NCBI GenBank assembly: GCA_964565925.1
Contig: CAZMGV010000006.1
Location: forward strand, 128,997-192,996
Reading direction: 5' to 3'
Source: an uncultured bacterium
GTDB taxonomy: Bacteria > JAGRBM01 > JAHCIT01
DNA: 64,000 bases
The position numbers were made by a program, and so were the translations under genes. The notes under the pieces were generated by a model. It made no database searches and had not been told where the DNA came from. It saw only the letters and a list, made by a program, of their open reading frames with translations. Of the stretch, positions 9,193-21,750 are shown piece by piece (the stretch's first letter is position 1; every line of letters starts with the position of its first letter).

Positions 9193-11991
9193 CTACTTCT
9201 TCGCGGCCTTCGCCTTCTTTTCCCCAAGCCTTTCGGCGATGGCGGCCTGCGCCGCGGCGAGCCGGGCGATCGGCACGCGGAAGGGCGAACAGCTGACGTA
9301 GTCGAGTCCCAGCCGGTGGCAGAACTTGACCGACTCGGGATCGCCGCCGTGCTCGCCGCAGATGCCGAGCTTGATGCCGGGACGCACGCTGCGGCCCAGC
9401 TCCGAGGCGATCTTCATCAGCTTGCCCACGCCCGGCTGGTCGATCGTGACGAACGGGTCGGCCTTGTAGAGATTGCTCTCCAGATAGGCCGGCAGGAACC
9501 GCCCCGCGTCGTCGCGCGAGAGCCCCATGGTCGTCTGGGTGAGATCATTGGTGCCGAACGAGAAAAACTCCGCCTCTTTCGCGATCTCGTCGGCGACAAT
9601 CGCCGCGCGCGGCAGCTCGATCATCGTGCCGACCAGGAACGGGATCCGTGTGCCCTTCTCGCGGTTCACCTCGTGGGCCACGTCGATCACGTTCTTCTTC
9701 AGCATGGCGAACTCGCCCGCGTCGGAGATAATCGGGAGCATGATCTCGGGCGTGACTTTGAGGCCTTCTTCCTTCAGCAGATCCACGGCGGCTTCGATCA
9801 CCGCGCGGGTCTGCATGTTGAAGATCTCCGGGTACACCACCGCGAGGCGCGAGCCGCGGAAGCCCAGCATCGGGTTGAACTCGTGCAGGCTCTCCACCTT
9901 CGCCTTGATGCGGGAGAACGGCTCGCCCAGCTCCTTGGCGAGCAGTTCCATCTCGGCGTCCGTGTGGGGCAGGAATTCATGGAGCGGCGGGTCCAGGAAA
10001 CGGATCGTCACGGGATACGGCGCCATGGCGCGGAAAATCCCCTTGAAGTCGCCCTTCTGCATGGGGAGCAGCTTGGCCAGCGCGTTCTCGCGCGCCTGCC
10101 GGTCGTCGGCGAGGATCATCTCGCGCATGGCGAGAATCCGGTCCGCCTGGAAGAACATATGTTCCGTGCGGCACAGGCCGATCCCCTCCGCGCCGAAGCG
10201 GCGCGCCTGGTCGGAATCGGCCGGGGTGTCGGCGTTGGTGCGGACCTTGAGGCGCCGCTCCTTGTCGACAAATTTCATGAACGCATGGAAGTCGGCCGAG
10301 AGTTCGGGCTCCATCGTCTCGAGCTTGCCGAGGATCACCTCGCCCGTGGAGCCGTTGAGCGACAGCCAGTCGCCTTCCTTCACCACGACTTCCTTGCCGT
10401 TTGCACGCGCGATGAACTGCATCTTTGCATAGTCGATTTCGATGGCCGAGCAGCCGGCCACGCAGCACTTGCCCATGCCGCGCGCCACCACCGCCGCGTG
10501 CGAGGTGCGGCCGCCGCGGGCGGTCAGGATTCCTTCCGACACCGTCATGCCGCCGATGTCCTCCGGCGACGTCTCGATGCGGACCAGGATGACCGGTTCG
10601 CCCAGATCCTTCTGGTGCTGGGCGTCGGCGGCCGAGAACACCACCTTGCCGACGGCGGCGCCGGGGGAGGCATTGAGCCCCTTGGCGATCACCTTCTTTT
10701 CCGCCTTCGGGTCGAACCGCCGGTGGAGCAGGTGGTCCAGCTGTTCCGGGTGCACGCGGAGCACCGCCTCGGCCGGCGTGATCAGTTTTTCGCGCGCCAT
10801 GTCCACGGCGATCTTGATCGCCGCCTGCGCCGTGCGCTTACCGTTGCGGGTCTGGAGCATGTAGAGACGGCCGTGTTCGATGGTGAACTCGATGTCCTGC
10901 ATGTCGCGGTAGTGCTTTTCGAGCTTCTGGTAGATCCTGACCAGTTCCTTGTACGCCTTCGGCATCACCTCTTCGAGGGACACCTGGTCGGCGCTCTCCT
11001 TGCCGGCGATGTTAATGGGCTCCGGCGTGCGGATACCCGCCACCACGTCCTCGCCCTGCGCGTTCACGAGGTATTCGCCGAAGAACCGGCGGTCGCCGTT
11101 CGACGGGTCGCGTGTGAACGCGACGCCCGTGGCGCAGTCGTCCCCCAGGTTGCCGAACACCATCGACTGCACGTTCACGGCGGTGCCGCCGGCGGCCGAA
11201 ATGTTGTTGAGCTTGCGGTAGATCTTCGCGCGGTCGTTCTCCCACGAGTTGAACACGGCGCTGATCGCGCCCCAGAGCTGCTCCTCGGGGTCGGTGGGGA
11301 AATGGTTGCCCGTGCGGTCCACGACCAGCCGCTTGAACCGCTCCACCAGCTCCTGCAGGTCGGAGATGTCCAGCTCCACGTCGAGCTTCACCTTGCGCTT
11401 GTGCTTGATGTCCTCGATGATCAGCTCGAACGGGTCGGCTTCCTTGTCGGACTGGGGCTTCATGCCCATCACCACGTCGCCGTACATCTGCACGAAACGC
11501 CGGTAGCTGTCCCACGCAAAGCGCGGGTTGCCCGAGTCGCTCGCGAGCCCCTCGACCGTCCTGTCCGAGAGCCCCAGGTTCAGGACGGTATCCATCATGC
11601 CCGGCATGGAGTCGCGCGCGCCCGAGCGTACGGAAAACAGCAGCGGTCTGGACGTCGAGCCGAAGCCGCGGCCCATGATCGCTTCCACACGCGCCACGGC
11701 GGAGGCCACCTGCCTGTTCAGTTCCTTGGGGTAGCGGCGTCCGTTGGCGTAGTACCAGCTGCAGACGGCGGTCGTGATCGTGAACCCCGGCGGCACCGGC
11801 AGGCCGAGGTTCATCATCTCGGCAAGCCCCGCGCCCTTGCCGCCCAGCAGTTCCTTCATGTCGCCACGGCCGTCGGCCTTGCCGTTGCCGAAGAAGTAGA
11901 CGAGCTGCGACGTTTTGGACGCGCCCTTGGCGGCGGCAGGTTTGGCGGCGGCTTTCTTCTGGGAGGCGGGTTTTTTCATGCCAGTCTTCAT
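9193..11991 (-). CDS. ppdK: Pyruvate, phosphate dikinase
   Basis: 932-aa protein with full-length PPDK similarity (LLGGKGAGLAEM ... GGRTSHAAVVARGMGKCCVAGC ... CGEHGGDP). Lys/Ala-rich N-terminal extension. Confidence 0.95.
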   Translation of the reverse strand: MKTGMKKPASQKKAAAKPAAAKGASKTSQLVYFFGNGKADGRGDMKELLGGKGAGLAEMMNLGLPVPPGFTITTAVCSWYYANGRRYPKELNRQVASAVARVEAIMGRGFGSTSRPLLFSVRSGARDSMPGMMDTVLNLGLSDRTVEGLASDSGNPRFAWDSYRRFVQMYGDVVMGMKPQSDKEADPFELIIEDIKHKRKVKLDVELDISDLQELVERFKRLVVDRTGNHFPTDPEEQLWGAISAVFNSWENDRAKIYRKLNNISAAGGTAVNVQSMVFGNLGDDCATGVAFTRDPSNGDRRFFGEYLVNAQGEDVVAGIRTPEPINIAGKESADQVSLEEVMPKAYKELVRIYQKLEKHYRDMQDIEFTIEHGRLYMLQTRNGKRTAQAAIKIAVDMAREKLITPAEAVLRVHPEQLDHLLHRRFDPKAEKKVIAKGLNASPGAAVGKVVFSAADAQHQKDLGEPVILVRIETSPEDIGGMTVSEGILTARGGRTSHAAVVARGMGKCCVAGCSAIEIDYAKMQFIARANGKEVVVKEGDWLSLNGSTGEVILGKLETMEPELSADFHAFMKFVDKERRLKVRTNADTPADSDQARRFGAEGIGLCRTEHMFFQADRILAMREMILADDRQARENALAKLLPMQKGDFKGIFRAMAPYPVTIRFLDPPLHEFLPHTDAEMELLAKELGEPFSRIKAKVESLHEFNPMLGFRGSRLAVVYPEIFNMQTRAVIEAAVDLLKEEGLKVTPEIMLPIISDAGEFAMLKKNVIDVAHEVNREKGTRIPFLVGTMIELPRAAIVADEIAKEAEFFSFGTNDLTQTTMGLSRDDAGRFLPAYLESNLYKADPFVTIDQPGVGKLMKIASELGRSVRPGIKLGICGEHGGDPESVKFCHRLGLDYVSCSPFRVPIARLAAAQAAIAERLGEKKAKAAKK
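9197..9247. repeat. 51-bp direct repeat, copy B (native 3' end of ppdK)
   Basis: Identical to 8362-8412. Lies inside the ppdK coding sequence. Confidence 0.85.
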
Positions 11992-13340
11992 GACAGTTTT
12001 CCGTCCAGGTAGTTGACGATCTGATCGGCGGAGACGCGCTCCTGCTTCATCGAGTCGCGGTCGCGCACGGTGACCGTGTTGTCCTTCACCGAGTCGGCGT
12101 CGACCGTGATGCCGAACGGCGTCCCGATCTCGTCCTGGCGGCGGTAGCGCTTGCCGATCGATCCCGACAGGTCGTAGTCCACGTTCCAGCGCTTCTTGAG
12201 CGCCTTGTACATTTTGTCGCCCAGCTCCGGCATGCCGTCCTTCTTGGTGAGCGGAAAGATCGCCGCCTTCACCGGGGCGATCTTGGGGTGGAACCGCATC
12301 ACGATGCGGGTCTCCAGGGCGCCCTTCTCGTCGGGGGCGGAATCTTCATCGTAGGCGTCGATCAGGAACGCCAGCGTGCCGCGGTCGGCGCCCGCCGACG
12401 GCTCGATGACGTACGGAATGAACCGCTCCCGCGTCTGCGGGTCGGTGTATTCGAGCGACTTGCTCGAGAACTGCTGGTGCTGCTTGAGGTCGAAGTCCGT
12501 CCGGTTGGCGATCCCTTCCAGCTCGGACCAGCCGAACGGGAACAGATACTCAACGTCCGCGCAGCCGCGCGCGTAGTGCGCCAGCTCGTCCGCCTCGTGG
12601 GCGCGCAGCCGCAGGTTTTCCTTCTTGATGCCCAGGTTCACGTACCAGTTGAACCGCGCGTCCTTCCAGTAGTTGTACCACTCCTCGTCCGTGCCCGGCT
12701 TGCAGAAGAACTCGATCTCCATCTGCTCGAACTCGCGCACGCGGAAGGTGAACTGCTTGGGCGTGATCTCGTTCCGGAACGACTTGCCCACCTGCGCGAT
12801 CCCGAACGGGATCTTCTGGCGGGACGTCTCCAGCACGTTCTTGAAGTTGACGAAAATCCCCTGCGCGGTCTCCGGACGCAGGTAAACCTGCGCGGCGGAG
12901 TCCTCCATCGGGCCCACGAACGTCTTGAACATCAGGTTGAACTTGCGCGCCTCGGTGAGTTCGCACGTCTCGTGCTGGCCCACCATCTTGGACGGCTTCT
13001 GCGGGCAGGGCGTGTCCGCCAGGTGATCCGCCCGGAAGCGCCCCTTGCACGCCTTGCAGTCCACCATCGGGTCGGTGAACCCGGACACGTGCCCCGACGC
13101 CTCCCACACGCGCGGGTGCATCAGGATCGTGCAGTCCACCCCGGCCATGTCGTCCCGCTCGGTGACGTTGGAGCGCCACCACTCGCGCTTCACGTTGTTC
13201 TTCAGCTCCACGCCCACCGGGCCGTAGTCCCAGCAGCCGTTCAGGCCGCCGTAGATCTCCGAGGACTGAAACACGAAGCCCCGCCGTTTGGCCAGCGAGA
13301 CGATCTTTTCCATGGTTGCTTTTGAGGACACCTTCACCAC
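11988..13340 (-). CDS. glyQS: Glycine--tRNA ligase (homodimeric class II type)
   Basis: 450-aa protein, MVKVSSKATMEKIVSLAKRRGFVFQSSEIYGG... with class II aaRS motifs. Its stop overlaps the ppdK start by 4 nt. Confidence 0.95.
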   Translation of the reverse strand: MVKVSSKATMEKIVSLAKRRGFVFQSSEIYGGLNGCWDYGPVGVELKNNVKREWWRSNVTERDDMAGVDCTILMHPRVWEASGHVSGFTDPMVDCKACKGRFRADHLADTPCPQKPSKMVGQHETCELTEARKFNLMFKTFVGPMEDSAAQVYLRPETAQGIFVNFKNVLETSRQKIPFGIAQVGKSFRNEITPKQFTFRVREFEQMEIEFFCKPGTDEEWYNYWKDARFNWYVNLGIKKENLRLRAHEADELAHYARGCADVEYLFPFGWSELEGIANRTDFDLKQHQQFSSKSLEYTDPQTRERFIPYVIEPSAGADRGTLAFLIDAYDEDSAPDEKGALETRIVMRFHPKIAPVKAAIFPLTKKDGMPELGDKMYKALKKRWNVDYDLSGSIGKRYRRQDEIGTPFGITVDADSVKDNTVTVRDRDSMKQERVSADQIVNYLDGKLS

Positions 13341-13532
13341 CGTTACCTTGAAGCAGATTGCGCCCCCGTTCGCCCCCTGAAAGGGCCGGTCCGCGCGCCG
13401 CTAAAAAGCGGCCCTGTATCTGCCCCGAAGGGGCAGCAGAATCAAGGGGTTGGGCGAATCGGGGCCTGGGGCCCGGGAGGGGGTGGGAGAATACCCCCTT
13501 CCTGGACTGTGGTTTCCGAAATTCGCTAAGCT

Positions 13533-16500
13533 TTGCAGCAACTTAAGCAGATGAAACTTTATCCGGGATTATATGATCAATTGCTGACAAAGCAGTTGGA
13601 AGCGGAGGCGCTCGAACAGGGTTTCGATCTGCGCCTACGAGAGCTAGACAGTTCTTCTGCTCATGTCGTAATCGGCCAATATCTTGAAAGATTGCTCGCC
13701 CGTGCACTTTCAGTAATCCCCGAAGCGGATAGACCGGCGGCGCAGGTCACGTTAGCGAACGAAATTATTCGTTGGCTGTTGTCGAAGAAGCAGGATGGAC
13801 TTGTCGACGGAGACATTATCTCCGAAAAATCGACGCTCTTGGCGTCGGTCTCGGACGACAAGCCACCTTTGAGTGCTGAAGATTGTCCCCTGATTCCACT
13901 TAATACGTCGGAGCTGTTCGTCAACGGACGCAATGAACCTCGACTGGGAGAAGAGCTTCGTCGAGAGATTTTATCTGCAGACCGAATCGATTTACTGTGC
14001 GCGTTCGTCAAATGGTACGGATTGCGCGTTATTGAGGAACCACTCGCTGAATTTTTGCGAAGCGGCCGTGAACTCCGCCTGATCACAACGACCTATATGG
14101 GTGCCACAGAGCAAAAGCCGCTGGATTGGCTTTTTCAGCGAGACGCCAAAATAAAGGTATCATATGAGACGGAATCAACTCGTCTGCATGCCAAGGCGTG
14201 GCTGTTTCACAGAAATAGTGGCTCATCCACCGCGTATATTGGCAGTTCGAACTTATCGTATGCGGCTTTACTCGATGGCGTCGAATGGAACGTTCGGCTT
14301 TCGCAGCAAACATTGGGACCCGTCCTGAATAAGTTTCAGGCGACCTTCGACACTTACTGGAACGATACGCGGTACGAACTCTATGACGCTAAAAGATTCG
14401 CGCAGGCGACTGCGCGCGATCTTCAAGATAAGACGACTGAAATTAGCTTTCGATTGCTCGACGTCGATCCACGGCCCCATCAAAGGGAAATTCTCGATGC
14501 ACTCGAAGTTGAACGGTATCGTCACGGTCGTTGGAAGAATCTAGTTGTTGCTGCCACAGGTACCGGCAAGACGGTAATTGCAGCTCTGGACTACCGGCGT
14601 CTTCGTGAACAATTACCGCGTGCCAATTTGCTGTTTGTTGCTCATCGAAAAGAGATTCTTACTCAAAGCCTCAGAATGTTCCGAGACGTATTGCGTGACG
14701 GCTCGTTTGGAGAGCTTTACGTTGACGGAAAACGGCCTGAACAGTGGTCCAATGTATTTGCTTCAATTCAGTCGTTGACAGCCCAATCTATCGACCGCAT
14801 TGATCCACATCACTTTGATGTTCTTATCGTTGACGAGTTCCATCACGCGGCAGCGAAATCATACGAAACGTTACTAAATAGGCTTAGGCCCAAAGTCCTT
14901 TTGGGCCTTACGGCGACGCCAGAACGGGGCGATGGTGAAAGCATCCTTCATTGGTTCGACGATCGTATTGCCGCTGAATTAAGAATCTGGGACGCGCTGG
15001 AACAAGATCTTCTCATCCCATTTCAATACTTTGGGATTCACGATGATGTGGACTTAGAAAAATTGTCATGGAAACGAGGCGGTTACGATCTCTCAGAACT
15101 GAGCAATCTGTATACGAATAACGACAGTCGGGTCGCCAAAATTCTACAGCAAATGGCTCGCATCGTACCGAATGTCGCAAAAATGAAAGCGCTCGGATTT
15201 TGTGTGAGCATTGATCACGCGAAGTTCATGGCGAAGAAGTTTTCAGAAGCCGGCGTTCCCTCAGTGGCGATCGTTTCGGAAGGCTCTTCGGCAAATAGAG
15301 ATGAGGCAATTGCTGATCTCAAGCGCAGAGATGGAAAGATTCGGACGATCTTTTGCGTCGATATTTTCAACGAAGGTGTAGATATACCAGCGGTTGATAC
15401 CGTCTTGATGTTGCGTCCAACCGAAAGTCCAACGGTGTTTCTGCAGCAACTCGGACGAGGGTTACGTCGGCATCCTGAAAAGGCGTGCTTAACGGTTTTG
15501 GATTTCATTGGAAACCAAAATCGAAAGTTTCGGTTTGATCAAAGATTCTCAGCGTTGATTGGGTGTAAGCGTAGAGACGTTGCCGAACATGTTGAGCAGG
15601 GTTTCCCGTTTTTGCCTGCTGGTTGCCATATCGATCTTGACCGAGATGTTTCTCGAATTGTCCTCGAAAATCTTAAGCAGACTATAGAAACCAAGAACAG
15701 GTTGGTACAAGAACTTAAAGATATTGGTGATGTCTCATTGCTCGAATTTATCCGGAAAAGTGGGGTCGATGTTGAGGACATCTATCGGAGCAATCGAAAT
15801 TATAGGATTCTTCGACAGTTGGCTGGCTTCCCAACGGAGCCTGATGGTGAATTCGAAGATGAACTGGGCCGTTCGATTGGCCGCCTTCTACATAACGACG
15901 ATGTAGTTCGAGTGGGGCTCTATCGGAAAATACTGTCCGAAAAATCACCACCCAAGGTAAATACGTTCTCAAAAACGGAGCGCCGGTCACTTCATATGCT
16001 TCACTTCATGCTTTGGGGCGTGAAGCGAAAATGGCCGTCTATTGATGAAGCATTCGTGACTCTGTGGAAGCACAAAAACGTATTGAAGGAACTGAGTGAA
16101 CTGTTCGAATTGCTAGACGAGAAGGCTGAGATTCTGACAAAGCCACTTCCGGAGTTGAGCGAAAGTCCGATCCAACTTTATGGACGATATGACCGCGCGG
16201 AAATTCGTGCCGCTTTTGATAGGCTCGACGTCGAAAAGCCGTATGCCCATCAAGAAGGTTGTGAATGGATTGAATCGTTTAACGCAGATATCTTTTTTGT
16301 GACCCTTAGAAAGAATGAAAAAGGCTTTACGGCGACGACTCTTTATAACGACTTCGCGGTTAGTCCGGAAGAATTTCATTGGGAGTCGCAATCACGCACG
16401 GCGGAGAAGAGCCCAACAGGGCAACGATATATCCACCACGCGAAACGCGGTAGTCGGATATTGTTATTCGTCAGGGAAACAAAGACGGACCCTTTCGTTG

Positions 16501-16619
16501 CGCTTGGCCCTGCGGAATACGTGAGTCACGAATCCGAACGGCCCATGAAGATTATCTGGAAGATGAAGTACCCGATTCCTGAATTCCTCTTGAAGTCGGC
16601 GACCGTCGTCGCGGCGTAA
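13533..16619 (+). CDS. PLD/HKD-like nuclease - SF2 (ResIII/DEAH) helicase - DUF3427-like fusion protein (candidate restriction/defence protein)
   Basis: 1028 aa. HKD-like motif RLHAKAWLFH...GSSN (about aa 219-240). Walker A AATGTGKT (about aa 340-347). DEFH box (about aa 434-437). Helicase motif VI QQLGRGLRR. About 300-aa C-terminal region resembling DUF3427. The gene is visibly lower-GC than its flanks. Confidence 0.85.
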   Translation: MQQLKQMKLYPGLYDQLLTKQLEAEALEQGFDLRLRELDSSSAHVVIGQYLERLLARALSVIPEADRPAAQVTLANEIIRWLLSKKQDGLVDGDIISEKSTLLASVSDDKPPLSAEDCPLIPLNTSELFVNGRNEPRLGEELRREILSADRIDLLCAFVKWYGLRVIEEPLAEFLRSGRELRLITTTYMGATEQKPLDWLFQRDAKIKVSYETESTRLHAKAWLFHRNSGSSTAYIGSSNLSYAALLDGVEWNVRLSQQTLGPVLNKFQATFDTYWNDTRYELYDAKRFAQATARDLQDKTTEISFRLLDVDPRPHQREILDALEVERYRHGRWKNLVVAATGTGKTVIAALDYRRLREQLPRANLLFVAHRKEILTQSLRMFRDVLRDGSFGELYVDGKRPEQWSNVFASIQSLTAQSIDRIDPHHFDVLIVDEFHHAAAKSYETLLNRLRPKVLLGLTATPERGDGESILHWFDDRIAAELRIWDALEQDLLIPFQYFGIHDDVDLEKLSWKRGGYDLSELSNLYTNNDSRVAKILQQMARIVPNVAKMKALGFCVSIDHAKFMAKKFSEAGVPSVAIVSEGSSANRDEAIADLKRRDGKIRTIFCVDIFNEGVDIPAVDTVLMLRPTESPTVFLQQLGRGLRRHPEKACLTVLDFIGNQNRKFRFDQRFSALIGCKRRDVAEHVEQGFPFLPAGCHIDLDRDVSRIVLENLKQTIETKNRLVQELKDIGDVSLLEFIRKSGVDVEDIYRSNRNYRILRQLAGFPTEPDGEFEDELGRSIGRLLHNDDVVRVGLYRKILSEKSPPKVNTFSKTERRSLHMLHFMLWGVKRKWPSIDEAFVTLWKHKNVLKELSELFELLDEKAEILTKPLPELSESPIQLYGRYDRAEIRAAFDRLDVEKPYAHQEGCEWIESFNADIFFVTLRKNEKGFTATTLYNDFAVSPEEFHWESQSRTAEKSPTGQRYIHHAKRGSRILLFVRETKTDPFVALGPAEYVSHESERPMKIIWKMKYPIPEFLLKSATVVAA

Positions 16620-16735
16620 GTCCGTCCTGGCCAGGCGGACTCATCTGGTCAACCACTCTCGTTAAAATTCGATTCCATTTTTACTGGACGCCCCCGGACC
16701 GCCTGGGCAGGGTCGGACTGGTAGGAGCAATAGCT

Positions 16736-16999
16736 ATGAACGCCGTCCGAATAACGCTGCAGCCGTCCGACTGGCAGATGTTGCTCGATCACCTCGATTC
16801 CTTGCGCGACGGCTACGAGCGCACAGTTATGTATTACCAAAGCGTCGGCACCGTCGAAGAGATCGGCATGGTCAGCGGCGACGTGAATAACGAAGAGGAA
16901 GCGTTAGTCGCCTTCAACTATTGCGGCTATTTGATTGAGTCGATCCGCCAGCAGATCGCCATACAAGACGGCCAAGAGTATGAGCTGAGAAGCGAATAA
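16736..16999 (+). CDS. Small hypothetical protein (87 aa) downstream of helicase-nuclease gene
   Basis: ORF with GGAGCAATAGCT-ATG RBS. Intermediate GC. No recognisable motif. Confidence 0.35.
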   Translation: MNAVRITLQPSDWQMLLDHLDSLRDGYERTVMYYQSVGTVEEIGMVSGDVNNEEEALVAFNYCGYLIESIRQQIAIQDGQEYELRSE

Positions 17000-17154
17000 C
17001 CCCCGTTCAAACCCTTCGATCCATTCGAGACGCGCATATGGTTCGACGGCGCTCACCACGAACGGCGCTCCTCAGGGCGAACGGGAGTGCCCCGAAGCGG
17101 CGGGTGAGTCCAGTACATAACATAAACGTCAACCTCCGCTTTTTAATAAAACCC

Positions 17155-17178
17155 CCCAAATGGCCCTAAATGACCCAA
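17155..17178. repeat. Left arm of ~22-bp inverted repeat (CCAAATGGCCCTAAATGACCCAAG)
   Basis: Reverse complement of 17420-17443 (CTTGGGTCATTTAGGGCCATTTGG-like). Confidence 0.7.
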
Positions 17179-17400
17179 GCCCGATTCCTGGGCAACATGG
17201 GCTAACCCCGCGCCGGCGCTCGGGAATCCGGCAGATTCCAAAACTTGTGTCACGTTAATCAAAAAATATTTTGGCGGCTGTTAAGGGGGTCGGCTCCGGC
17301 GGGGAAATCCGGAGATTCCGCTGCGTGATCCGCAAGTTGGACCGTCAGAATTAAGGCCTTAACTACCGTCGCTAGATTCTCAAAAAACCGTGCGCGCTTG

Positions 17401-17443
17401 GGTCATTTAGGCTCGTTTAGGGTCATTTAGGGCCATTTAGGTT
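17401..17443. repeat. Four tandem 10-bp repeats (GGYCRTTTAG, period 10 bp) forming the right arm of the inverted repeat
   Basis: GGTCATTTAG / GCTCGTTTAG / GGTCATTTAG / GGCCATTTAG at 17401-17440. The units are one helical turn apart. Confidence 0.7.
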
Positions 17444-17801
17444 CACCCCCTTACGTCGCCCCATTTCGCTCGCTAACAATAGTCACATGGGAAATCCGTA
17501 CTCCATACCCGCCGACCTCAGGGACGACCCGTCCGCTTACCGGGATGACTACCCGGTCTCTTCTACGGGCGGTGTTACGGCCGGTACGGTCGTCCCGTTC
17601 CCTTCGCCGCAGGGCAGCGCGAGGCAGAGCTATAACGGCGCGTTCGCGAGCGGCCGGCGGTGGGTGCGAGCGCGGGTCAATGTGGAACCCGAGTGGTCGA
17701 GCCCCCGTGTGGCTGGAAAAATCTGGAACTGCGCGACGGCCCGCACGATTGTCTCACCCGTCGAGCGCGACACGGTGAGCCGGGCGGTGGGGGGACTGTT
17801 C

Positions 17802-17859
17802 GGGGGGATTCGGCCCCCCTGCGATCCCTCCCGGGATCGCGTCCCCCCGAATAGGGGGG
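17802..17859. repeat. Three consecutive perfect GC-rich hairpins
   Basis: GGGGGG-ATTCGG-CCCCCC (17802-17819). GCGATCCC-TCCC-GGGATCGC (17821-17840). CCCCCC-GAATA-GGGGGG (17843-17859). Confidence 0.5.
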
Positions 17860-18030
17860 ACAAATCCGCGGGACTGACTACCCGTGGAACCGGTCAGCCG
17901 GGCGAGTGTTCTCCCCCTCGACGGGGGAGACCCTCCGGAGTTTTACCGCAGGAGGGTGGGGGTGCGGAGTTGGTTCCCGCTTTGCCCGCTCCCGCCCCGC
18001 ACGCTATGGGGGCTGGCGGAGGGTCTACCC

Positions 18031-19044
18031 ATGCCGAACAAGACGGTTCTGGTGACGGGCGCCAGCGGGTTCATCGGGAGCCATCTCACGGAGCAGCTTC
18101 TGGAGAAGGGCCACGAGGTGCGCACGATCGTGCGCCGGCCGGAGACGCTGGGCCGGTATTCGTTCTCGAAGCACCCCAACTTCCGGGCGTTCACGGGCGA
18201 CCTGCTGGACCCGGCGACCTTCCAGGCGGCCTGCGAGGGCGTGGAGCAGGTGTACCATCTGGCCGGGATCATCTCGACGAAAAACGGCGAACGCCGGAAG
18301 CTGTTCGATATGAACGTGAAGGGGACGGTCAACCTGTTTGGCACGCTCAAGCGCACGAAGCCCGGAAAGATCGTCTACCTCGCGTCGATTTTCGCGCTGG
18401 CTCAAGGCGAGAAAACCCGCCCGGCGACGGAGGAGAGTTTCTACAACCTGGAGGGGGTGCGGGTGGACTACTTCGACTCCAAGCGGGCGGCGCAGCTGGA
18501 GGTCGAGAAGTTCGAGATGGACGGCCTGCCGGTGACCTACGTGTACCCGGGTTTCTGCTACGGGCCTGGCGATATCTACGTCTCCAGCTCGGTGTTTATC
18601 CTCAGCTTTCTGCGCGGCGAGCTGCCGGTGCTGATGGAGGGCGGGCAGAACGTGCTCGACGTGCGGGACTGCGCGAAGGGGCTGATACTGGGGATGGAGA
18701 AGGGCCGCGTCGGGCAGAAGTATCTGATCGGCGACCACAACATCACCTTCAAGGAGCTGGCCGACACGCTCGCCAGAGTGACCGGCAAGAAGGCGCCGGG
18801 CGTGGTGCTCCCCCGGTTCGTGACGGTGGGCCTTGGCACGGTGGCCGAGCGGCTGATGCCGAAATTTCCGCTCAACCGCCAGTCGGCCGAGGCGGCCAGC
18901 CACTACTGGTACTACGACACCGGCAAGGCGCGCTCGGAGCTGGGCTACACGGGCCGCCCGCTGGAGGAAACCCTGCGGGACGCCGTGAGCTGGTTCAAGG
19001 CCAACGGCTACGACCGCCGCGGGTTCTATCCGCCGGTCCACTAG
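18031..19044 (+). CDS. NAD-dependent epimerase/dehydratase family protein (extended SDR)
   Basis: Starts at the internal Met with a Rossmann motif (VLVTGASGFIGSHL). YxxxK-type catalytic region. About 337 aa. Confidence 0.85.
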   Translation: MPNKTVLVTGASGFIGSHLTEQLLEKGHEVRTIVRRPETLGRYSFSKHPNFRAFTGDLLDPATFQAACEGVEQVYHLAGIISTKNGERRKLFDMNVKGTVNLFGTLKRTKPGKIVYLASIFALAQGEKTRPATEESFYNLEGVRVDYFDSKRAAQLEVEKFEMDGLPVTYVYPGFCYGPGDIYVSSSVFILSFLRGELPVLMEGGQNVLDVRDCAKGLILGMEKGRVGQKYLIGDHNITFKELADTLARVTGKKAPGVVLPRFVTVGLGTVAERLMPKFPLNRQSAEAASHYWYYDTGKARSELGYTGRPLEETLRDAVSWFKANGYDRRGFYPPVH

Positions 19045-19101: not shown

Positions 19102-20253
19102 ATGCGAACCGCTCCGATGCACGATATGTCCCGAACCATAGTCCACATAGACGACGACCCCGCGATCCTCGACCTGGTGTCGGCCTCCCTCTCGGAGCCG
19201 GGCAGCATCGAGGTGATCTCCGTGCGCGACGGCAACAAGGCGGTCGAGGTGATCGGCAGGCGCCGGCCCGACCTCATCCTGTGCGACATCGGCCTGCCGG
19301 AGCGGGACGGGTTCTCGGTGGTCGAGGAGCTGCGCCGCTGGCCCACTTCCATCGACGCGCCGGTGATTTTCGTCTCGGCGCTGGCGGACGAGGCGCAGAT
19401 CGACCGGGCGTTCGGAATAGGCGCGGCCGATTTCATCAAGAAGCCGTTCCGGCCGACGGAACTCAAAGCCCGGGTGCTGGCGAGACTCGGCGCCCACTCG
19501 GCGGCCAAATCCGCCGGCTCCGGCGCCCCGGGCAGCGCGGACGTGCGCGGCTCGCTGGCCATGATGAGCGTGGGGGACCTGTTCAACGCCGTGGAGCTGG
19601 GCCGCAAGAGCGGCGTGCTGAAACTCTCGGGCACGGAATCATCCGGTACGAAACTGGCCGGCGAGATCCGGTTCAAGGCCGGCCGGGTCGTGGCCGCCAG
19701 TTGCGACGGGATCACCAACGAGGCGGCCGCCTACCGCCTCGGCGTGCTGGCCGACGGCGATTTCGAGATGCGCTTCCTCCCCGAAAAAGAGGTGGAGGGC
19801 AAGCTGGACCTCTCGCCGCAGTTCCTGCTCATGGAGGCGTGCCGCCTGCAGGACGAAGGCACGCTGGTGCAGCCAAAGCCCCCGACGCCGTCCCATCCGC
19901 CGGCGTCTTCCGAACTGGCGCAGCTGCTCGCCCGGTTCGACGCCCTGATCGCCTACGCGCAGAAGACGTCGCACGCCTCGGTGGTCCGCAACTATCTGGA
20001 GGAGTCCCGGCGTATACTCCCGCGCCAGTGGCGGGAAAGCTGCCAGGTGGGCTCGGGCGACGGTTCGCTGGAGGGCACCCCGGTGATCATCATCCAGCCC
20101 GGCGCGCCCGGTTCCGAGAATCTCGTGCGGGCGTGGGTGAGCGAGTTCATCAAGCGCGGACAGTATTCAGAGCCCAAGGCCTACGGCCGCGAGGCGATCC
20201 TGGCCGCCGGGATTCTGGACGCCCCGTTTCTGGACAAGCTCGGTATCCGCTGA
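19102..20253 (+). CDS. Response regulator receiver protein with DUF4388 domain
   Basis: REC domain (IVHIDDDPAIL...LILCDIGLPERDG...FIKKPF) followed by a DUF4388-like segment (GSLAMMSVGDLFNAVELGRKSGVLKL). The start may be the downstream Met at 19126. Confidence 0.8.
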   Translation: MRTAPMHDMSRTIVHIDDDPAILDLVSASLSEPGSIEVISVRDGNKAVEVIGRRRPDLILCDIGLPERDGFSVVEELRRWPTSIDAPVIFVSALADEAQIDRAFGIGAADFIKKPFRPTELKARVLARLGAHSAAKSAGSGAPGSADVRGSLAMMSVGDLFNAVELGRKSGVLKLSGTESSGTKLAGEIRFKAGRVVAASCDGITNEAAAYRLGVLADGDFEMRFLPEKEVEGKLDLSPQFLLMEACRLQDEGTLVQPKPPTPSHPPASSELAQLLARFDALIAYAQKTSHASVVRNYLEESRRILPRQWRESCQVGSGDGSLEGTPVIIIQPGAPGSENLVRAWVSEFIKRGQYSEPKAYGREAILAAGILDAPFLDKLGIR

Positions 20254-20273
20254 ACTTTCGGTTGCGCCGGGGC

Positions 20274-20738
20274 CTAATGGCCCTTGCGGAGCCGCTCCCA
20301 GCCCGACCGGGCGCCGTGACGGGAGGCCGGATCGCAGGCCGGCGCGCTGAAAGCCCTCGCTTCCGCTTCGAAGTCGGCGCAGCTCCCGGTGCCGCAGTCG
20401 TAAAGATTCAGGCAGTCGGTGCCCTGCCGCTCGCACGCGATCCAGATGGAGCTGCCTTCGGGAAAAAGCTGGTCGACCGGAACGGGGTAGGACCGCCGGA
20501 TACCGATGAAGCTCCACGAGCCGAAGTCATGGGAGATCAGGTCCTTGCCGGGACGGATCAGACCGATGAGCTCGAACGACGACACCGGGACCTGCTCGAA
20601 CCGCTTCTCGAGCCGCGATTCGATCTCGTCGGCGTCGTCCATTTCGAGCCAGTAGCTGTAGCCAAGGTATCCGGCGCCGGTCAGCACGGCGCAGACCAGA
20701 GCGATCAGGGGCAGGGGGCTCCGGTCGCCGGAAGCCAT
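20274..20738 (-). CDS. Small membrane-anchored hypothetical protein
   Basis: 154-aa ORF with N-terminal TM helix and several Cys in the C-terminal domain. A 4-nt gap separates it from the upstream MshEN-domain gene on the same strand. Confidence 0.45.
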   Translation of the reverse strand: MASGDRSPLPLIALVCAVLTGAGYLGYSYWLEMDDADEIESRLEKRFEQVPVSSFELIGLIRPGKDLISHDFGSWSFIGIRRSYPVPVDQLFPEGSSIWIACERQGTDCLNLYDCGTGSCADFEAEARAFSAPACDPASRHGARSGWERLRKGH

Positions 20739-20742
20739 CCCG

Positions 20743-21750
20743 TCAGCCTTCCTCGAACGAGCGGGTCACCCGGGAGTTGATGACGCGGGCGTAGGCGGCG
20801 GGCAGTTTCTGGACCGCCAGCAGCACCGGTCCGATGTCGGCATCGATCGTCGCCATGGGTCCGGCGTCGGCATATAGGATGTTCACCACCCGGCCGCCCA
20901 CGTGCACCGGCACGAACAGCGAGTTGCCGCGCTGCTTGTAGAGCGCCTTGCGGACCAGGTCGTTGGCCGTGGAGCGCGGAATACTGCCCAGGTAGTGGCC
21001 CGGATGCTTGATGACGGAATCAAAGACGGATTCGCGGTTCAGCGTGATGGCGATGGCTTTCACGAGGTCCGGATCGATGCGGTCGCCGATCCCTTCCCAG
21101 CCGAAGACGATTTCCTTTTTGACGATAAAGAAAACCGCCCGGCCGATCTGCCTGGCCGCCTGCAGCACGATCGAATGGACGATCTCGTCCCGGTTCGCGG
21201 CCGTTTCGACGGTCGGCTCCGCACGCGGCACGCGGGGGAGCGTGCCGCCCGTTTCCATCTTGCTCCGGTGGGCCCGCGACGACCGGTCGATGTAGTCCAG
21301 TTCGGTTTCTTCGTGGCGCCAGTTGGGGAGCATGCCGCAGTACTGTTCGAGCAGCGCGGCCATGGTCAGTTCCGTGACCACATACGGCTTCACGATCAGT
21401 CCGGTGGAATAGGCGATCTCCGCCTTCACCACGTGCTCGCCGGGGTTCACCATCAGGAGCGCAAGGGTTTTGGATTCCACGCGGTAGGGGAACACTTTCG
21501 CGGAACGGCACCGTTCGTGACCTATTCTTTCGACCAGTTCCGGATCGATCGCCGCCCGGTCCACGTCGACCGTCGGCACGCCGAACTGTCTGGAGAGGCA
21601 GAGCGCCAGCTCTTCTTCGCGGAGCGCGCCGGTTTCGACAAGATTGGTACCCAGATGGCCGCCGTAGACCGCCTGGTGACGGATGGCTTCCTCGATCTGG
21701 TCGCGCGTGGCGAAACCGTTCTTGAGCAGTAACCGGGGCAAAAGCTCCAT
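20743..21750 (-). CDS. MshEN / T2SSE_N (GspE N-terminal) domain protein, putative c-di-GMP receptor
   Basis: N-terminal LPRLLLKNGFATRDQIEEAIRHQ and a second HLGTNLVETGALREEELALCLSRQ match the 24-residue MshEN-type motif. No ATPase domain is present. Confidence 0.7.
   Translation of the reverse strand: MELLPRLLLKNGFATRDQIEEAIRHQAVYGGHLGTNLVETGALREEELALCLSRQFGVPTVDVDRAAIDPELVERIGHERCRSAKVFPYRVESKTLALLMVNPGEHVVKAEIAYSTGLIVKPYVVTELTMAALLEQYCGMLPNWRHEETELDYIDRSSRAHRSKMETGGTLPRVPRAEPTVETAANRDEIVHSIVLQAARQIGRAVFFIVKKEIVFGWEGIGDRIDPDLVKAIAITLNRESVFDSVIKHPGHYLGSIPRSTANDLVRKALYKQRGNSLFVPVHVGGRVVNILYADAGPMATIDADIGPVLLAVQKLPAAYARVINSRVTRSFEEG

Follow-up and report, generated by a model that had tools for sequence, protein, structure and literature searches.

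The window analysed here is a stretch of 64,000 nucleotides (contig CAZMGV010000006.1, positions 128,997 to 192,996) from an uncultured bacterium, and its gene at 13551–16619 very probably encodes a horizontally acquired restriction endonuclease of the SauUSI family, that is a type IV (modification-dependent, ATP-dependent) enzyme, carried between glyS and an epimerase gene, in a hotspot of defence genes. The family, type IV and ATP-dependent, has SauUSI as its founding member and combines a phospholipase D (PLD) nuclease, a superfamily 2 (SF2) ATPase, a helical coupler and a DUF3427 target-recognition domain (TRD) (PMC3141236, PMC7913695, PMC3874153). An earlier note on the same DNA had proposed a single-protein defence system matching no named one. 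Nuclease, translocase and DNA reader are indeed located in one chain, but the absence of a named counterpart has to be abandoned, as this architecture is the defining one of the SauUSI family (Xu et al. 2011, PMC3141236; crystal structure 7CLG, PMC7913695).

Probable assignment of the enzyme to the SauUSI family

The assignment is carried by the architecture of the protein, its predicted fold and the conservation of its residues. Amino acids (aa) 109–1012 match positions 13–934 (of 945) of the PADLOC model mREase_IV PDLC03659 ('Type IV methyl-directed restriction enzyme') at 880 bits (E=4e-265), so that an existing type IV model already recognises the protein, which runs counter to the novelty proposed at first; the protein belongs to a clade captured by this PADLOC model. 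A phmmer search against all PDB sequences gives as top match 7CLG, the SauUSI crystal structure (E=3e-81), colinear over aa 119–994 versus 28–920. The full-length AlphaFold2 (AF2) model, built on 50 homologues, has a pLDDT of 81, and 7CLG is again its first Foldseek match (E=2e-38 over 939 columns), the second, RadD (2e-14), being 24 orders of magnitude weaker. The low TM-score to 7CLG reflects, as far as this predicted model goes, differing inter-domain orientations.

The open reading frame (ORF) reported previously on the plus strand, from 13533 (TTG) to 16619, is present, TTG being a mechanical in-frame start; the letters found there are TTGCAG, and not ATGCAG as had been quoted. The likely start is the ATG at 13551, where the N-termini of 49 homologues coincide, and an independent gene call on the identical public contig agrees with it. 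Residue numbers are counted here from this ATG (those counted from the TTG are 6 higher), and conservation figures are taken from an alignment of 50 homologues. All the motifs pointed out from the letters alone were retrieved, namely H213-x-K215 (formerly H219/K221), G231-S-S-N234, GTGK340T, D428-E-F-H and QQLGRGLR639, and the same five are invariant in 50/50 homologues. In SauUSI, mutation of H119, K121, N139 and E150 abolishes activity (PMC3141236); in the phmmer alignment these residues correspond to H213, K215, N234 and E245, which are also invariant (50/50). The invariant residues of the ATPase comprise K340 of Walker A, D428, E429 and H431 of the DExH box, and R636 and R639 of motif VI.

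PLDc_2, RE_NgoFVII, ResIII, Helicase_C and DUF3427 all exceed their curated Pfam cut-offs. The PLD, SF2 and DUF3427 parts named in the earlier note are thereby retained, with the reservation that three parts had been listed under an announced four. The DUF3427 assignment itself holds, but its extent of ~300 aa does not: the Pfam match covers ~186 aa (830–1015), and the rest is the helical coupler, a domain defined in the SauUSI structure paper (PMC7913695) and helical here in the AlphaFold model (pLDDT mostly 77–96). The ATPase (ResIII E=3e-35, Helicase_C E=4e-14) aligns to that of SauUSI, and the reader domain has the SRA fold, as in other modified-cytosine readers, with 22% identity to the SauUSI TRD.

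Could the protein rather be a housekeeping DNA-repair helicase (RadD/XPB-like), or PbeA of the phosphorothioate-linked PbeABCD system? The NCBIfam RadD model reaches 105.7 bits, 6JDE (RadD) is the second-best PDB match, and PbeA, the second-best PADLOC family, matches aa 185–654 (E=8e-35). However, the RadD score is to be compared with a cut-off of 720 and covers the ATPase core alone, while the PbeA match is confined to the PLD–ATPase part (119 bits, versus 880 bits for mREase_IV). In addition, no Pbe partner genes are present in the slot between glyS and the epimerase gene, dnd_restrict_1 attains 70 bits for a cut-off of 600, and the foreign composition of the gene and its patchy, non-syntenic distribution fit neither proposal, both of which are barely credible.

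The absence of a methyltransferase partner, remarked on from the outset, is confirmed: no C5-methyltransferase was found by tblastn in the 64-kb window, and none adjoins six homologue loci. This is what a type IV enzyme predicts, as such an absence is a hallmark of the type. Comparisons with DISARM, Mokosh and type III/ISP enzymes are beside the point given the SauUSI architecture. A type III/ISP restriction-modification (R-M) system was discarded, as the protein is devoid of a methyltransferase (MTase) domain and no MTase gene was found in slot or window, ResIII denoting a shared ATPase fold; DISARM was discarded as well, with partial matches to DrmD (5e-6) and DrmC (3e-3) alone and no further genes in the slot.

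These elements also bear on the proposal of a new, unnamed single-protein system that would act on unmodified invader DNA like type III/ISP or DISARM, possibly together with orf87, the small ORF that adjoins the enzyme gene. Nuclease and helicase in one chain with no methyltransferase, an N-terminal module that SauUSI is without, and the Shine-Dalgarno sequence of the adjoining ORF would all be compatible with it. It is nonetheless very improbable, since homology to SauUSI and to the PADLOC type IV model is colinear and full length, the SRA fold of the reader is that of modified-cytosine readers, ISP enzymes require the MTase domain that this protein is lacking, the DISARM matches are marginal, and orf87 has neither homologues nor a constant association with the enzyme. 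This ORF is acidic (pI 4.2, 16 D+E versus 5 K+R), and its GC content at the first, second and third codon positions (GC1/2/3 = 0.57/0.31/0.74) is coding-like, with a GC3 between island and host values. It has no match in Pfam, PADLOC or NCBIfam, a search of 5.8 billion proteins retrieved it alone, tblastn against 88 fetched loci retrieved no homologue, and there is no counterpart beside six enzyme homologues. It is probably genuine as a gene, though an orphan, and no conserved part of the enzyme system.

Reader pocket, residue 220 and the N-terminal module

Several points weigh against a SauUSI-family enzyme. Overall identity to SauUSI is ~25%. Two residues of the modelled SauUSI pocket, M829 and Y831, are not conserved, their equivalents being E902/C904 or G903/E905, according to how a one-residue ambiguity of the local alignment is resolved. 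In the PLD motif HxK(x)4D/E, a His (H220, codon 14208–14210) stands in place of the acidic residue. Constructs of 945 aa and 991 aa of a SauUSI relative, ScoA3I, showed no activity in vitro or in E. coli (PMC6765204). No sigma-70-like promoter was found by a scan whose sigma-70 pattern may not apply to this organism. Finally, the C5-methyltransferase search covers the 64-kb window, and a conflicting enzyme elsewhere in the genome is possible. Terminator-like sites were no more frequent than background in the promoter/terminator scan.

The SauUSI structure paper models a pocket for 5-methylcytosine (5mC) formed by M829, Y831, F841, I842, D858 and W868, in which D858 hydrogen-bonds the cytosine, W868 stacks on the base, M829 intercalates and Y831 contacts the methyl group (PMC7913695). 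In the present clade, D858 corresponds to D934 and W868 to W944, both invariant among the 50 homologues, and the counterparts of F841 and I842 are F916 and V917, conserved or nearly so, which suggests a flipped modified cytosine as the likely ligand, most likely 5mC or 5-hydroxymethylcytosine (5hmC). The position of C904 is V or P in most homologues, within a clade motif R/Q-E-G-V/P-x-W in which G903 is invariant. As M829 and Y831 are replaced, the preferred modification or sequence context may differ from that of SauUSI. This raises the alternative of a SauUSI-family enzyme with a truly shifted reader, specific for 5hmC only, for another modified cytosine, or for a context other than S5mCNGS. 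The substitution of Y831 and M829 by a motif conserved in the clade, and a TRD only 22% identical to that of SauUSI, would fit such a shift, whereas the invariance of the cytosine-contacting Asp and of the stacking Trp, the restriction of Dcm (5mC)-modified DNA by ScoA3I in S. lividans (PMC6765204), and the binding of 5mC and 5hmC by other DUF3427 proteins (PMC6765204) make it unlikely, though worth keeping in mind.

For an enzyme of the SauUSI family, we infer the recognised modification, its sequence context, dimerisation, translocation and activity in the host along the following lines. Dimerisation would take place via the single-HKD PLD nuclease domains, by homology to SauUSI, as one HKD motif per chain implies it (from general knowledge of PLD nucleases and PMC7913695). 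The C-terminal SRA-fold domain would flip a modified cytosine of incoming DNA into its pocket, with a hydrogen bond from D934 and stacking by W944, and this recognition would activate the SF2 ATPase, leading to translocation on double-stranded DNA and loop extrusion. The PLD nuclease (H213/K215/N234/E245) would then cut both strands, and repeated cycles would shred the modified DNA. Host DNA would be protected by the absence of the modification, so that no methyltransferase would be needed. One prediction is that the organism would resist transformation with Dcm-methylated DNA.

Would the His at position 220 compromise such an activity? Over the 50 homologues, His is the majority state of residue 220 (H, 33; E, 8; Q, 3; T, 2; R, 2; D, 1), and therefore a clade trait and no private lesion. 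A decaying or inactive passenger, that is a recently transferred and non-functional restriction gene, would agree with this substituted acidic residue, with the in vitro inactivity of ScoA3I (PMC6765204) and with the lack of a recognisable promoter in the scan. Against it, the 1022-codon frame is intact, all the catalytic and ATPase motifs invariant in the 50 homologues have been kept, His prevails at this position in the clade, and E126 does not belong to the residues of SauUSI found essential by mutagenesis (PMC3141236), all of which renders an inactive gene improbable.

Neither SauUSI nor the two PADLOC mREase_IV models include the N-terminal module, as the SauUSI alignment begins at aa 119 and the PADLOC one at aa 109. 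The helices of the module (14–22, 37–54 and 63–78) have a pLDDT of 76–90 in the AF2 model, and it is found in 49/50 homologues with a common start point, at an identity of 27% versus 54% for the remaining protein. The module has no Pfam match; searched alone against 1.8 billion representatives, it retrieves 70 short proteins, and among the ten longest of these, which were scanned, five are N-terminal fragments of the same family and no independent family sharing the module was found. A marginal match (P0190, E=8e-4) has a module-like segment joined to a DSP-phosphatase domain, of the 'Swiss Army Knife'/polymorphic-toxin type. This fusion hints at a shared adaptor in conflict systems.

ScoA3I (Sco2863 of Streptomyces coelicolor) is the only non-staphylococcal SauUSI relative with experimental data in the cited literature. 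Strong homology to SauUSI is reported for it (PMC6765204), and it restricts a Dcm+ plasmid ~1000-fold in S. lividans (PMC6765204; PMC3874153 table). Like the present enzyme, it comes from a high-GC bacterial host and has an altered acidic residue in its PLD motif, this altered Asp having been remarked by its authors (PMC6765204). Its length of 945 aa is that of the PADLOC model PDLC03659, which starts at ~residue 97 here, and its constructs (945 and 991 aa) are shorter than the 1020–1050 aa typical of this clade. ScoA3I may be a member of this clade. If so, the 945-aa and 991-aa constructs might start at ~residues 97 and 51, respectively, and miss part of the conserved N-terminal module, and the altered Asp of ScoA3I may be a clade trait and not an inactivating mutation.

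The variable slot between glyS and the epimerase gene

Foreign composition, solitary occurrence and a variable site cargo are observed directly. The claim of an AT-rich island is borne out by the GC profile in 500-bp windows, with 45–51% GC over 13.5–16.5 kb versus 62–70% in both flanks, this stretch being the minimum of the whole 64-kb window. The GC content of the enzyme gene is ~48% and that of the surrounding host genes ~65%; its GC3 is 0.49, versus 0.91 for the pyruvate-phosphate dikinase, 0.94 for the glycyl-tRNA synthetase (GlyRS), 0.92 for the epimerase and 0.89 for a response regulator. The horizontal acquisition suggested by the earlier note is supported by this difference (GC3 of 0.49 versus ~0.91 in host genes). 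The site cargo differs in three close relatives. The family is very large (at least 8000 scored candidates, all at E<=1e-10, the 120 of them that were listed being full length with ~50% identity), and among the matches listed the nearest non-self homologue is only 56% identical, which fits a transfer from an unsampled donor of ~48% GC. GlyRS, the 87-aa ORF and the epimerase are all located where they had been placed before (Table 1).

Table 1. Coordinates of the enzyme gene, its domains, the slot with its anchors, and the cargos compared in close relatives (positions in the window unless a locus is named)
Feature	Position	Strand	Description
Gene of the probable SauUSI-family type IV restriction enzyme	13551..16619	+	1022 aa + stop; PADLOC, phmmer and Foldseek matches
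N-terminal three-helix module	13551..13904	+	aa 1-118; motif GLYDxL(I/L)T; clade-specific
PLD-family single-HKD nuclease domain	13905..14393	+	aa 119-281; catalytic H213, K215, N234, E245; Pfam PLDc_2, RE_NgoFVII
SF2 helicase-like ATPase/translocase	14463..15689	+	aa 305-713; Walker A GTGK340T, DEFH 428-431, TAT 454-456, motif VI QQLGRGLR 632-639
All-helical coupler	15690..16178	+	aa 714-876, equivalent to SauUSI residues 618-805; colinear with 7CLG
DUF3427 / SRA-fold target-recognition domain	16179..16616	+	aa 877-1022; pocket D934, W944, F916, V917, G903
orf87	16736..16999	+	87 aa; AGGAG 8 nt upstream of ATG; no conserved partner role
Variable slot (island)	13455..18030		between conserved glyS leader and epimerase start; contains enzyme gene, orf87, inverted-repeat element and GC-rich spacer
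Conserved glyS leader	13341..13454	-	two small hairpins; marks left edge of slot; 78% identity to L002
GlyRS (class II)	11988..13340	-	Pfam tRNA-synt_2b + HGTP_anticodon; host core gene, left anchor of slot
NAD-dependent epimerase/dehydratase	18031..19044	+	Pfam Epimerase E=6e-28; host gene, right anchor; syntenic with L003:3938-4963
Inverted-repeat element	17155..17441		287 bp; bounded by 22-nt inverted repeat, 95% complementary; right edge of island
Cargo of this window			SauUSI-like type IV enzyme + orf87
Cargo of L003	L003:5655-9594		HTH-fused C5 cytosine methyltransferase, overlapping Vsr, MvaI/BcnI-family endonuclease, Abi_alpha protein (PADLOC PDC-S47)
Cargo of L002 (92% GlyRS identity)	L002:1-360 (contig end)		C-terminal catalytic domain of EcoRII-family endonuclease, Pfam EcoRII-C E=7e-35, directly after shared glyS leader
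Cargo of L089 (92% GlyRS identity; metagenome contig Ga0268299_1011432)	L089:400-2136		defence-type SIR2-like protein (373 aa) + DUF559 endonuclease-like ORF

The edges of the slot were delimited by comparison with three close host relatives (L003, L002 and L089), all uncultured, whose GlyRS is 91–92% identical to that of the window; beyond these three, GlyRS has at most 66% identity to any genome representative. Blastn synteny with the relatives ends at ~13319–13454 on the left and at 18035 on the right, and in the L002 alignment the identity of the leader runs to 13454, with complete divergence beyond. L003 (91% GlyRS identity) is syntenic on both sides, including the epimerase, and its cargo (39–60% GC) has a dcm-vsr-like arrangement of methyltransferase and Vsr. 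In L089, the cargo lies upstream of GlyRS in DNA of 34–43% GC. As four backgrounds carry four different cargos, the slot at ~13455–18030 looks like a defence hotspot. No tRNA or tmRNA integration site was found in the 64-kb window, and no integrase or transposase ORF in the slot. Candidate att-like direct repeats (13363–13446 versus 17000–17113) were dismissed as chance, their alignment score of 23 lying within shuffled controls (maximum 25). From general knowledge of hotspots, exchange of cargos by homologous recombination via the conserved flanks would be the simplest route.

The L003 and L002 systems are of the Dcm/EcoRII/MvaI kind, and probably CCWGG-type as judged from Vsr and EcoRII. SauUSI cleaves Dcm-modified DNA (PMC3141236, PMC3874153), so that the cargos of these siblings and that of the window may be mutually incompatible alleles. 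If antagonistic, these alleles would be mutually exclusive, each restricting gene flow or phage passage from the other. Taken jointly, two linked readings, namely that the glyS–epimerase cargos are epigenetically antagonistic, and that the N-terminal module is functionally required, which could explain the in vitro inactivity of ScoA3I, are put forward tentatively and with some doubt; a requirement for the module, if true, could rescue the in-vitro activity of the non-staphylococcal clade.

Elsewhere, the neighbourhood of the enzyme varies. Homologues adjoin a type I R-M system and Mrr in L087, and BrxC/D, an SNF2 helicase and Fic in L085; that of L088 is found among phage-like genes, and those of L082, L083 and L086 among housekeeping genes, with no recurring neighbour across these six loci.

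Other elements were noticed within and around the slot. The glyS leader contains two small GC-rich hairpins, GCCGCTAAAAAGCGGC and CTGCCCCGAAGGGGCAG, at 13394–13436, common to L002, which may serve the divergent genes as a leader or a terminator; with Rfam, neither a T-box nor another leader was found upstream of glyS, and nothing meaningful over 13000–18300. At the other end, the right arm of the inverted-repeat element sits in four tandem 10-bp units (GGGTCATTTA / GGCTCGTTTA; 4 matches of the pattern versus 0.01 expected), and the element folds more favourably than shuffled versions (z=-3.1). Rfam gave no match to it, nor did a scan of the metagenome collection retrieve its 22-nt arm exactly; the element could be a remnant resembling a miniature inverted-repeat transposable element, or an operator array. 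Between this element and the epimerase start lies a spacer of 544 bp (17487–18030) with a host-like GC of 69%. No convincing gene was found in it, a mechanical 526-aa ORF from 17487 having no Pfam match and overrunning the epimerase in another frame, nor any similarity to the equivalent spacer of L003. Downstream, at 19102–21750, the host genes comprise that of a response regulator with a DUF4388 fusion and, on the other strand, that of an MshEN-domain protein, which hint at a Myxococcota/Planctomycetota-like or other uncultured lineage.

Significance and comparison with known systems

The enzyme itself adds little, as the wide distribution of SauUSI-like proteins and the details of their mechanism were established before. 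What is new is the variation of defence cargo beside GlyRS in close relatives, and the N-terminal helical module of the clade. The locus offers a natural example of one chromosomal hotspot with four defence cargos in four near-identical backgrounds, including putative 5mC-writing R-M systems and a putative 5mC-dependent nuclease. Annotation could also be improved, the public labels being 'DUF3427 domain-containing protein' or 'superfamily II helicase' for this protein and those related to it.

The closest known system is SauUSI, with which the enzyme shares the domain order (PLD nuclease, linker, SF2 ATPase, helical coupler, SRA-fold/DUF3427 TRD), the four essential nuclease residues, all the ATPase motifs, the Asp, Trp and Phe of the pocket, and the occurrence as a solitary gene without methyltransferase. 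It differs from SauUSI by an extra N-terminal three-helix module of ~110 aa and by HxK(x)4H in place of HxK(x)4E. In addition, SauUSI is a core gene of S. aureus, a Firmicute, whereas the present copy appears as a recent low-GC insertion in an uncultured high-GC host. The same DUF3427 reader domain is found in the DUF3427–PD-(D/E)XK fusions McaZI, BwiMMI, EfaL9I and YenY4I, which bind 5mC/5hmC DNA, restrict T4gt, are toxic in Dcm+ cells and often occur in defence islands (PMC6765204). In contrast to the present enzyme, these are much smaller, ATP-independent proteins with a C-terminal PD-(D/E)XK nuclease and no helicase. NgoAVII and CglI (R2H2) also combine a PLD-family nuclease with an SF2 helicase-like ATPase (PMC7913695), but they are made of two subunits, have a B3-type TRD, act on unmodified specific sites with a cognate methyltransferase, and are not modification-dependent. 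Finally, EcoKMcrBC is a functional analogue, as an NTP-driven translocating type IV enzyme restricting 5mC/5hmC DNA (PMC3874153), although it relies on unrelated proteins, with an AAA+ GTPase and a PD-(D/E)XK nuclease in two subunits.

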